A stretch of 64,000 bases of DNA, from NCBI GenBank assembly GCA_965116885.1, contig OZ220741.1:1952001-2016000 (forward strand), read 5' to 3'. Shown here in pieces: positions 37,453 through 64,000 of the stretch. The stretch's first letter is position 1, and each line of letters starts with the position of its first letter. The notes under the pieces are model-generated. The model did no database searches, was not told where the DNA came from, and was given only the letters and a program-made list of their open reading frames with translations. Source of the stretch: Candidatus Latescibacterota bacterium. GTDB lineage: Bacteria > Latescibacterota > UBA2968. A program made the position numbers and the translations under genes.

Positions 37453-38022
37453 TCATCGCGGCCTGATGTTGGGCCGCGATCCAGGGCTTTTTCGTATGAC
37501 TGCCGCAACGAAATCAGTTTTTGCAGCCTGATAAGCTTTTCGGTCTCCTTGAAGTCTCAGGAGTAGATCGCGTTTCAGTTCTTTATACTCTTCGGCAGTC
37601 TTTTGATGCGTTCTCAAATAGTTTCGGAATAAGATTAATTTTTCCCATTCTTCGCTATCTTTTTCGAGTAGATGGATGTGATGGGTGCATGGCTCGCCTT
37701 TTAGAAAATAGTGTCTGCGAGGTATGCCGTTCTCTCCCTTGAAAGTGTATCCCCTGTCACAGAGAGGCTTTATACATATTCTGGCTTCTTCAAAGTCTTT
37801 GACAGCGATTGCAATGTCCAGGATTGGCTTGGCAGGCATTCCCGGAATTGATGTGCTGCCGACATGCTGTATGTCCTCGATATAATCTCCTATTGCTTTT
37901 TCAATATCCCTCTTTTCTATTTCGAATAAGTTTTTCCATTCTTCCCGATAAGGGGAAACGCGCAGTTCCCCACGCTTCAGACCGAGTGGAAATTGGTTGC
38001 TGGTTTCGGATTCCTGATACAT
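37453..38022 (-). CDS. GrpB family protein (nucleotidyltransferase-like fold)
   Basis: HVGSTSIPGMPAKPILDI, THHIH, FRNYLR, Y..LK, YQAAK; start may be 38040. Confidence 0.9.
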   Translation of the reverse strand: MYQESETSNQFPLGLKRGELRVSPYREEWKNLFEIEKRDIEKAIGDYIEDIQHVGSTSIPGMPAKPILDIAIAVKDFEEARICIKPLCDRGYTFKGENGIPRRHYFLKGEPCTHHIHLLEKDSEEWEKLILFRNYLRTHQKTAEEYKELKRDLLLRLQGDRKAYQAAKTDFVAAVIRKSPGSRPNIRPR

Positions 38023-38032
38023 TTCCTCTTTA

Positions 38033-62389: not shown

Positions 62390-62403
62390 CACATCCTCCT
62401 GAT

Positions 62404-64000
62404 CTATTCTGTTCGCAATGCGTTTATCGGATTGGTTGTCGCTGCTCTGAAAGTCTGGAAACCGATTGTCGTGAGAGAAGCGACGATCGTAATGATTCCG
62501 CTCAGAAGAAACGGCTCGATGCCCAATTGAATCCGGTAAGGGAAGCTCTCGAGCCAGCGGCTCAGGAGATAGAATGCGATGGGCAAAGCAATGAGATTGG
62601 AAGCGACGATCAACTTCGAAAACTCATTGAAGAGCAATAGTACGATGCTCGACACAGAGGCACCCAGAACCTTTCGTACGCCTATCTCTCGGGTTCGAAG
62701 TTGAATCATGAAGGAGGAGAGACCGACGAGTCCCAAGCAGGCAACGAAGATGGCGATTAAAGAAAATGTACCGAAGATCTGGCCCAGTCGAATTTCTTCT
62801 CTATAGTAGAAATCCAAACGCGCATCGAGGAATTCATAGTCGAACGGACGCTGAGGGAGAAAACGGTGCCAGGTTTTTTTGAGGAATTCCAGGGTTTCGG
62901 GCACACTTTCCGATGCGATCTTCAGATGCAGGATTTTCATATTCCAGTGTTCTGTTGTGAACACGGCTGGCTCGATTTCCTCATGGAGCGTGCGCAAATG
63001 AAAGTTTTTCACAACGCCGATGATCGTCCCTCTCGTTCGTCCTGCCCATTCGAATGACTGTCCGACGGGATGCGCCAATCCCAGACGCTTTACGGCGGCT
63101 TCGTTGAGAATGAAATATTCCTCTTGTCCCGTCCTGATTCGTTCTCGATGTGCGATGGCCGTGTACTCCCTCGGGAATGTCCTTCCCTCCACGAACGGAA
63201 TCTCATACAGATCGAAAAAATCCTCATCCACTGGAAATGTCCGCATCTCCAAAAATTCAGCCATCTCTGGCGTTCTGAATTTATAGTGTGCTGACCAGTC
63301 CTGTAGATAAAATCGCGACGTTGAGGCCTTCAAAACATTGGGGTGCTCGAGGAAGCCCTGCTTTATCGTCTGAAACCGTTTCTTTAACTGGGTCCCGAGT
63401 GGTCCAAGCTCTTCGACGCTGCCGGCTACCTGGAAAATTGGCAACAGGACAATATGGTCTCTATTGAACCCAAATTGCGTGCGGATAAAAGATAGCTGGC
63501 TGGATACCACCAGGGTCCCCACAATCAGAATGCTGGATATTGAGAACTGAAGAATGACCAGCACTTTTCGAAATCGGCCCCTTCTGCTGGATCCAAGCTG
63601 AGAGCCGCCTTTGAGGGTACTCGCCGGTTGGAAGCCAGAAAGGAAGATGGCTGGATAGAGTCCCGCAGCAAGGCCAACTATCAAAGCCAGTCCGAGTGAC
63701 GAAATTGCAATTATGGGGAATTCTTCTGTACTGATGAACAGGGGTCGGTCGATAAAGGATCGGAATATAGGTAGCGTGAGCACAGTTAGGACAAAGGCGA
63801 TCAGCAGCGCAAGCAGGGACAGCAGCAGGGACTCCCCTAAGAATTGTCTGATTAGTTGGCCCCGATTTGCTCCTACAACCTTTCGCAGTGCGACCTCTCT
63901 GTTTCGGCTGATCGACAGAGCAGTAGATAGATTCACAAAATTTACTGCGGCAATGATGAGAATAAGGACTCCGATGAGCGAGGCTTGCTCCACGGTTCTC
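62404..64000 (-). CDS. MacB/FtsX-like ABC transporter permease, 5' end outside window
   Basis: RNREVALRKVVGA, REIGVRKVLGAS, NPINALRTE. Confidence 0.92.
   Translation of the reverse strand, partial: RTVEQASLIGVLILIIAAVNFVNLSTALSISRNREVALRKVVGANRGQLIRQFLGESLLLSLLALLIAFVLTVLTLPIFRSFIDRPLFISTEEFPIIAISSLGLALIVGLAAGLYPAIFLSGFQPASTLKGGSQLGSSRRGRFRKVLVILQFSISSILIVGTLVVSSQLSFIRTQFGFNRDHIVLLPIFQVAGSVEELGPLGTQLKKRFQTIKQGFLEHPNVLKASTSRFYLQDWSAHYKFRTPEMAEFLEMRTFPVDEDFFDLYEIPFVEGRTFPREYTAIAHRERIRTGQEEYFILNEAAVKRLGLAHPVGQSFEWAGRTRGTIIGVVKNFHLRTLHEEIEPAVFTTEHWNMKILHLKIASESVPETLEFLKKTWHRFLPQRPFDYEFLDARLDFYYREEIRLGQIFGTFSLIAIFVACLGLVGLSSFMIQLRTREIGVRKVLGASVSSIVLLLFNEFSKLIVASNLIALPIAFYLLSRWLESFPYRIQLGIEPFLLSGIITIVASLTTIGFQTFRAATTNPINALRTE

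Follow-up and report, generated by a model that had tools for sequence, protein, structure and literature searches.

What remodels a chromosomal locus that resembles an integron cassette array in its gene content, yet carries no integron? The question is raised by a gene array in a stretch of 64,000 nucleotides from Candidatus Latescibacterota bacterium (assembly GCA_965116885.1, contig OZ220741.1, positions 1,952,001 to 2,016,000 of the forward strand), which we call the window and to which all coordinates refer. The array under study covers window 37453-64000 (~26 kb), with gene calls taken from the listing of open reading frames (ORFs) and from Pfam. A preliminary description, made from the letters alone, had proposed a gene-capture hotspot run by a mechanism other than that of integrons. 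We find that the region is probably a chromosomal flexible region (plasticity zone) of a known kind, which changes by ordinary processes without integron machinery. It consists of co-directional, tight strings of independent small enzyme genes together with orphan ADOP-like permease paralogs. Deletions would leave remnants that selection trims back to the stop codon of the neighbour and the ribosome-binding leader of the next gene, whereas segmental duplication, with differential loss as the later event, would relocate genes and leave scars at gene ends. Selfish two-gene modules (toxin-antitoxin, HNH pair) and insertion sequence (IS) elements insert as well, and neither a site-specific recombinase nor a recombination site would take part.

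The array holds 27 genes, 25 of them on the minus strand; the two on the plus strand are a HAD gene and an orphan UPF0175 gene. According to Pfam these comprise GrpB, five FtsX/MacB_PCD permeases of ~800 aa, two HAD proteins, a C45/AAT-family protein, three GNAT proteins, two APH-like kinases, two class-I methyltransferases, two NUDIX proteins, RidA, an ankyrin protein, a metallophosphoesterase, an AAA_33 kinase-like P-loop protein, a pair of UPF0175 and DUF3368 (PIN-like) genes, a pair of an HNH and a 116-aa gene, and the orphan UPF0175. Mostly short, unrelated genes of these families, all but two on the minus strand, had been described before, and both ORF listing and Pfam agree with that account. 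With NCBIfam all small enzymes of the array can be assigned to superfamily level only. The features are as follows (L001-L009 are related loci in other genomes, introduced below).

37425-37453, unstranded: REP-like (repetitive extragenic palindrome) GC-rich hairpin that marks the left border, within a 105-nt insert found in the window only
37453-38040, minus: GrpB-family gene (PF04229, 1.9e-48); orthologs in L002, L004, L005, L006 and L007
38033-40522, minus: permease PERM1, duplicated FtsX/MacB_PCD, ADOP-like (Pfam, NCBIfam); orthologs in L006 and L009, split by an IS element in L001
40586-42985, minus: permease PERM2; likely ATG at 42985, longest ORF to 43057; orthologs in L001, L002, L003 and L009
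43008-43047, minus: second copy of the C45 3' end (11 codons and the stop), located 22 nt ahead of the start of PERM2
43048-43196, unstranded: AT-rich divergent region between HAD and PERM2; 43011-43185 is in relatives the leader of another permease, PERMX
43197-43889, plus: HAD-IA hydrolase between the copies of the 40-nt repeat (Pfam, NCBIfam)
43914-44948, minus: C45/AAT-family autoproteolytic acyltransferase/hydrolase (Pfam, NCBIfam); query for finding related loci
44963-45433, minus: GNAT1 (Pfam)
45476-45958, minus: HAD-IIIA phosphatase (Pfam, NCBIfam)
45971-46909, minus: APH-like kinase 1, APH1 (Pfam); exact stop-to-stop indel against L001, L002 and L004
46911-48077, minus: APH-like kinase 2, APH2 (Pfam); conserved start probably at 47927-47981
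47998-48813, minus: methyltransferase MT11 (Pfam)
48853-49566, minus: methyltransferase MT25 (Pfam); missing here in five relatives with identical junction, relocated in L001 and L002
49599-50090, minus: NUDIX1 (Pfam)
50115-50459, minus: RidA (Pfam)
50514-51038, minus: GNAT2 (Pfam); last ~21 codons unlike relatives
51064-51594, minus: GNAT3 (Pfam); conserved start probably at 51510
51601-52899, minus: ankyrin-repeat protein, ANK (Pfam); contains a 291-nt tandem duplication
52984-53014, minus: terminator-like hairpin with 14-bp stem and T run (folding, terminator scan); inserts vary between it and the AAA_33 stop
53062-53550, minus: DUF3368 PIN-like toxin candidate (Pfam; PADLOC PDC-S70, 9e-54)
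53531-53968, minus: UPF0175 antitoxin candidate (Pfam); conserved start probably at 53797
53920-54558, minus: AAA_33 P-loop kinase-like gene (Pfam)
54612-57059, minus: permease PERM3 (Pfam, NCBIfam)
57235-58004, minus: HNH endonuclease (57235-57657) and 116-aa gene (57654-58004), 4-nt overlap (Pfam, PADLOC)
58237-58461, plus: orphan UPF0175 gene (Pfam, 3.5e-18)
58514-59293, minus: metallophosphoesterase, MPE (Pfam); its 5' half follows AAA_33 in L002
59309-59872, minus: NUDIX2 (Pfam)
60026-62392, minus: permease PERM4 (Pfam, NCBIfam), followed by a hairpin and A/T run in a 153-nt spacer
62404-64000, minus: permease PERM5 (Pfam), truncated by the window end; its L008 ortholog is directly followed by AAA_33

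Relatives of the locus were found by scanning genome contigs with the C45 protein as query. This returned nine Latescibacterota loci (L001-L009), six of which are on chromosome-level records of 5.7-6.5 Mb, plus one unrelated Phycisphaerales match. Homologs of the C45 protein are found at 87-96% identity, with more distant ones at 64% and 57%; for the nine relatives the amino-acid identity of C45 is 84-91% and the DNA identity to the window 86-96%. They hold the same gene set, with orientation kept and order broadly alike. The concatenated tree, (L001,L002), window, ((L003,(L004,L008)),(L005,L006)), has short internal branches, and the trees of C45, NUDIX1, MT11, RidA, APH1 and GNAT1 are largely congruent with it (L007 groups with L004/L008 in the C45 and GNAT1 trees, and the placement of L009 is unsettled). 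Across 23 gene families the median ratio of nonsynonymous to synonymous divergence (dN/dS) is 0.06-0.26, and the median dS per family lies between 0.17 and 0.48, as compared with 0.45 in the flanking HSD_b gene (for which the L004 values are a probable alignment artefact). Given the congruent gene trees and the low dN/dS, shared ancestry and selection are demonstrated: the array genes are old, inherited and functional. The common ancestor of no fewer than ten species already had them, and purifying selection retains them. A 'capture' of the enzyme genes, as had been suggested, is unsupported: the congruent trees and flank-like dS values point to one vertically inherited pool.

Despite this common stock, the locus is highly variable. 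For each relative ~20 kb was covered, i.e. at most 10 kb on each side of one gene, and in the comparable parts all ten arrangements differ in the subset of genes and their order; a conserved order and content, which would have spoken against a hotspot, is thus not what the relatives display. The flank is conserved (HSD_b is present in 7 of 9 relatives), and the interval from C45 to GrpB/HSD_b contains between 0 and 4 permeases; they belong to six orthogroups, and their order varies. Window 38016-43185 is missing from L004 and L005, and in L008 PERM5 is joined directly to AAA_33, window 54537-62401 being missing. APH1, APH2, MT25, GNAT1, GNAT2, GNAT3, HADpnk, RidA and ANK are each absent in one to five relatives. 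Conversely, GNAT2 is followed in relatives by an 81-aa + 149-aa nucleotidyltransferase module that is not in the window, and an alpha/beta hydrolase, a pair of 195-207-aa paralogs, an ABM monooxygenase, a PIN pair and a DUF433/DUF5615 pair are likewise found in relatives only.

The positions at which the arrangements part were analyzed as 63 breakpoint clusters in window 37300-54700, with 20000 random draws as null. Intergenic DNA makes up 6.4%, but 23 of the 63 breakpoints are intergenic (4.1 expected, at most 13 in 20000 draws), and 37 are in spacers or at most 30 nt from a gene end against 8.6 expected; the other 26 lie more than 30 nt inside genes. Alignment across relatives, which had been put forward as a check, therefore reveals whole-gene presence and absence with breakpoints enriched at gene ends. 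At the junctions every gene retains its own leader of 14-25 nt, and similarity changes 0-12 nt past the upstream stop. Many partial genes remain: HAD in L001, L002 and L008, MT25 in L001 (and as a 5' stub in L009), half of MPE in L002, PERM1 fragments in L007 and L008, and a 3' fragment of AAA_33 after MT11 in L005 and L006. HADpnk has left a 5' stub after APH1 or APH2 in L001, L003 and L007 (travelling with APH1 in L001) and a 3' stub after MT25 in L002. Most differences thus look like loss or rearrangement leaving remnants. As a control, the flank was considered as well: clean whole-gene indels occur beyond the array too, where L004 and L007 have two extra genes (~610 aa and ~1100 aa) at window 35742/35743 and 35503. 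One further protein of the dataset, P0040 (210 aa), combines methyltransferase Pfam domains with 70% identity to 44% of the C45 protein, and could be a chimeric ORF created where the junction in a relative is rearranged.

The clear gains are selfish modules, namely toxin-antitoxin pairs, the HNH pair and IS elements. The adjacent UPF0175 and DUF3368 genes overlap by 20 nt and match PF03683 (9.7e-24) and PF11848 (1.3e-14), with PDC-S70 as the PADLOC assignment; at the level of the genes they have what is expected of a putative type II toxin-antitoxin pair. For this pair PADLOC gave no more than candidate-system matches, and for the HNH gene a weak PtuB-like similarity. The site between the AAA_33 stop and the terminator hairpin (window 52984-53968) is occupied by UPF0175/DUF3368 in the window and by a different, reversed PIN pair in L006 (745-1660), and is empty in L001 (600-720) and in L004. 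For the HNH gene there are four close relatives (79-98% identical), and the remaining ones of at least 120 listed matches are at 55-65%; the named ones among these are cyanobacterial, often in multiple copies, which suggests import. Together with the 116-aa gene, which is without known family, it probably forms an imported selfish module. Six IS elements, of six families, are found in 5 of the 9 relatives; three of these split PERM1, GNAT2 and C45, and short overlaps resemble target duplications. The orphan UPF0175 antitoxin-like gene lies within the 509 nt that separate the 116-aa gene from the phosphoesterase, with no toxin gene next to it.

The permeases are the other conspicuous component of the array. 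Over the ten genomes they fall into 11 orthogroups with a mutual protein identity of 32-47%, and between the array paralogs the longest exact DNA match is 10-14 nt, with an end identity of 27-60%. The idea that conserved permease ends act as recombination anchors does not hold up, as the paralogs are too diverged for it. A recent spread of permease modules between lineages was considered as well and is unsupported (dS 0.13-0.32). A sixth permease lies outside the array (7235-9721, plus strand). All six have the duplicated MacB_PCD + FtsX architecture at ~800 aa, and score 244-321 bits with TIGR03434 (ADOP), below its cut-off of 622.3. The 58 window ORFs that were scanned contain no ABC_tran domain, hence there is no ABC ATPase gene beside the permeases. 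They resemble the ADOP family in size (~800 aa), in having two MacB_PCD and two FtsX domains, in their many diverged paralogs and in the lack of an adjacent ABC ATPase. They differ from it in their sub-cut-off scores, in belonging to another phylum and in that the paralogs here lie within one variable locus.

To the left of the array, 9797-35473 is a dense cluster with seven PhyH genes plus one weak match, three sulfatases, a fucosidase, GH32, GHL6, an arylsulfotransferase and DUF6785/6784. Gene GC is 0.40-0.55 in the array against 0.50-0.59 in this PhyH/sulfatase cluster, and reaches 0.57-0.61 in two 3-beta-HSD-like ORFs beside the array. REP-like GC-rich hairpins are located at 13216-13275, 17688-17786, 23859-23888 and 37425-37453; none was found in 37.5-64 kb, so the reported absence of REP elements from the array is correct, the last of the four marking its border. 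The ends of GrpB and HSD_b are just 2 nt apart in L005, L006 and L007. In the window, the specific insert 37380-37484 substitutes the last ~10 codons of GrpB and rewrites its C-terminus. The region 35947-37379 holds two overlapping plus-strand ORFs that each match the N-terminal portion of the 3-beta-HSD/Rossmann profile, a pair that is also present in L003-L007. Further away, window 1-7152 carries glycosyltransferase, methyltransferase and cytidylyltransferase genes on the plus strand; its low GC (0.35-0.42) is a composition different again, and it is probably an island for surface polysaccharides. The ankyrin gene of the array has an internal 291-nt tandem duplication at 51831-52402 with 87% identical copies; its repeat content differs in relatives (71% covered in L009, 79% identical in L004). 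A gathering-threshold scan of the whole window with Rfam gave no matches.

Among the explanations that compete with a flexible region, a degenerate integron, or a cluster of attC sites lacking an integron-integrase (CALIN), whose attC sites were overlooked is the one invited by the gene content. Chromosomal cassette arrays hold similar gene families and embedded toxin-antitoxin modules, and the genes here are co-oriented like cassettes. This co-orientation is regional rather than array-specific, however, because the minus strand also carries 19 of the 20 genes of 9797-35473. With refined starts, three of the 26 junctions overlap, 13 measure 1-54 nt and ten at least 55 nt; spacers are thus frequently below 50 bp, as had been noted, and most junctions (16 of 26, overlapping or <55 nt) are too short to leave room for an attC site. 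A scan for paired R''/R' cores with flanking complementarity gave 0 candidates in 37380-64000, although this crude scan is weaker than the standard covariance-model test of IntegronFinder. Folding of the ten long spacers revealed no attC-like hairpin, but only the REP hairpin and two terminator-like hairpins. Tyrosine recombinase or integrase domains were detected by Pfam neither in the 58 window ORFs nor in 35 further ORFs of relatives (within 10 kb), where the only rve/DDE matches are IS transposases. No k-mers are common to the 26 junctions except A-rich runs, no common motif was seen by eye around the stop codons, and consensus scans for sigma-70-type promoters and terminators stayed at chance level except for one hairpin with a 14-bp stem. 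The preliminary statement that there are no attC sites and no integrase is therefore upheld, and its companion, that the spacers share no motif, survives the k-mer search with one exception, the 40-nt direct repeat flanking HAD. By the definitions of Cury et al. 2016 (PMC4889954), the locus is neither a complete integron nor a CALIN, and a degenerate form of either is scarcely credible. Recent acquisition of a genomic island, for instance what is left of an integrative element, plasmid or phage, would agree with a GC below that of the left neighbour, a heterogeneous GC3 (GC at third codon positions, 0.35-0.57 over the array genes), the toxin-antitoxin and HNH modules and the cyanobacterial names of HNH relatives outside the clade. 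Yet the locus is at the same place in 9 of 9 relatives with flank-like divergence, the window contains no tRNA gene (0 in a tRNA scan) and no integrase, and there was no match among 72,556 plasmid or 50,697 phage records, so that we consider an island very unlikely. The drop in GC from ~0.55 to ~0.46 at 37-38 kb might also indicate an assembly chimera of the DNA of two organisms at ~37.4 kb, one of the outcomes that would have overturned the hotspot idea. This is next to impossible, because the same HSD_b/GrpB border recurs in L004, L005, L006 and L007, and HSD_b adjoins array permeases in L001 and L003.

More weight has to be given to exchange that is anchored on repeats and precise, in which single genes or permease modules with their short leader would undergo repeated excision and re-insertion at gene boundaries through host recombination and not an integrase. 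Its main exhibit is the 40-nt direct repeat (90% identical) at 43008-43047 and 43911-43950, the latter being the 3' end of C45, which brackets the plus-strand HAD. In L003 and L009, C45 is joined directly to PERM2, i.e. the junction predicted by the scar in the window. L002 has another C45-end copy upstream of its PERM2 and one in front of a second HAD, which carries an internal deletion; upstream of PERMX the element is present in L009 and in part in L001, L006 and L002. There are two to three copies of it per locus, all in direct orientation and all located at the borders of modules, and recombination between two copies would yield the order HAD-leader-scar-PERM2. Modules also retain their 14-25 nt leader at every location, and identical breakpoints are seen on differing backgrounds. 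Moreover, the relocated MT25 contains a 333-nt patch (L001:8939-9271 and L002:8598-8930) that is 99.7% identical against 93.1% over the locus, which points to recent exchange or conversion between L001 and L002. Nonetheless, this is a single repeated element, with no motif common to the 26 junctions; 26 of the 63 breakpoints fall over 30 nt inside genes, and partial genes are many; the scar is conserved no better than the surrounding non-coding DNA (84-90% over 43011-43185); permease-module dS between lineages is 0.13-0.32 and not near zero; and Pfam revealed no recombinase in either set of ORFs (58 of the window, 35 further ones of relatives). We regard such exchange as rather unlikely. The repeat would equally fit the duplication of a junction followed by loss, as a deletion between two copies would give the arrangement of the window. 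Short homologies at gene ends, suggested earlier as an anchor, thus have one good example in the C45-end repeat, but do not form a general rule.

Some observations do weigh against a flexible region changing by ordinary processes alone. Three indels have the same breakpoints across clades (MT25, 48828-49591; APH1, 45984-46910; PERM1+PERM2, 38016-43185), and that of APH1 runs precisely from one stop codon to another, with a microhomology of 1-2 nt. The flanks of MT25 (150-400 nt on each side) track the species tree and not the indel state. Random independent deletions are not sufficient to explain identical breakpoints; either sorting of old polymorphism with recombination near the junction or a precise recurrent process is needed. 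The former is plausible since the internal branches are short. The spread of one MT25-absent haplotype by recombination, another candidate, is unsupported at this resolution, as the flanks follow the species tree. The label 'hotspot' itself is based on ~20 kb per relative. It might be argued that the C45-end and similar anchors drive a recurrent, precise shuffling at gene boundaries, free of attC and IntI, as a host-recombination analogue of the integron. Such shuffling would explain the identical breakpoints on different backgrounds and the exact stop-to-stop indels, but we hold it to be quite improbable. What stands of the proposed hotspot are the whole-gene presence and absence and the gene-end breakpoints, whereas dedicated capture is not shown.

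Read as a flexible region, the locus offers a nucleotide-resolution record of change in an accessory locus over ten species of an uncultivated phylum. Selection acts on the small enzymes and orphan permease paralogs, and still single genes are lost, duplicated or moved to another place in the order, while toxin-antitoxin pairs and IS elements keep arriving. For genome scans it is a caution, since cassette-like content and co-orientation are insufficient to call an integron. If the recurrent boundary-precise events should prove mechanistic rather than sorted polymorphism, the array would lend itself well to the study of gene shuffling without an integrase.

Tandem duplication followed by differential loss is known as gene amplification-reduction, or 'accordion' dynamics. 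The array is similar to this in its duplicated junction fragments, in relocated genes that carry a piece of their old neighbour and in second partial copies (HAD in L002, the AAA_33 fragment in L005/L006, and the C45 ends). It differs in that none of the ten genomes has an intact multi-gene tandem duplicate, which is why we infer the duplication step. With sedentary integron arrays and CALIN (Cury et al. 2016, PMC4889954), the array shares co-oriented short unrelated genes, toxin-antitoxin modules and whole-gene variation. Unlike them it has no intI and no attC, each gene has its own leader, and 2.4-kb permease genes are included; an integron array is resembled in content only. Chromosomal hotspots of gene flux without recognizable mobile elements have been described by Oliveira, Touchon, Cury and Rocha (2017, PMC5635113). 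Compared with these, an inherited pool, to which most of the enzyme genes belong, is differentially lost in our case instead of newly transferred, and the comparison concerns species at ~90% identity rather than strains, at one locus. With the same hotspots the array has in common a delimited stretch, a fast change of repertoire without integrase, phage or conjugative element, and signs of homologous exchange.

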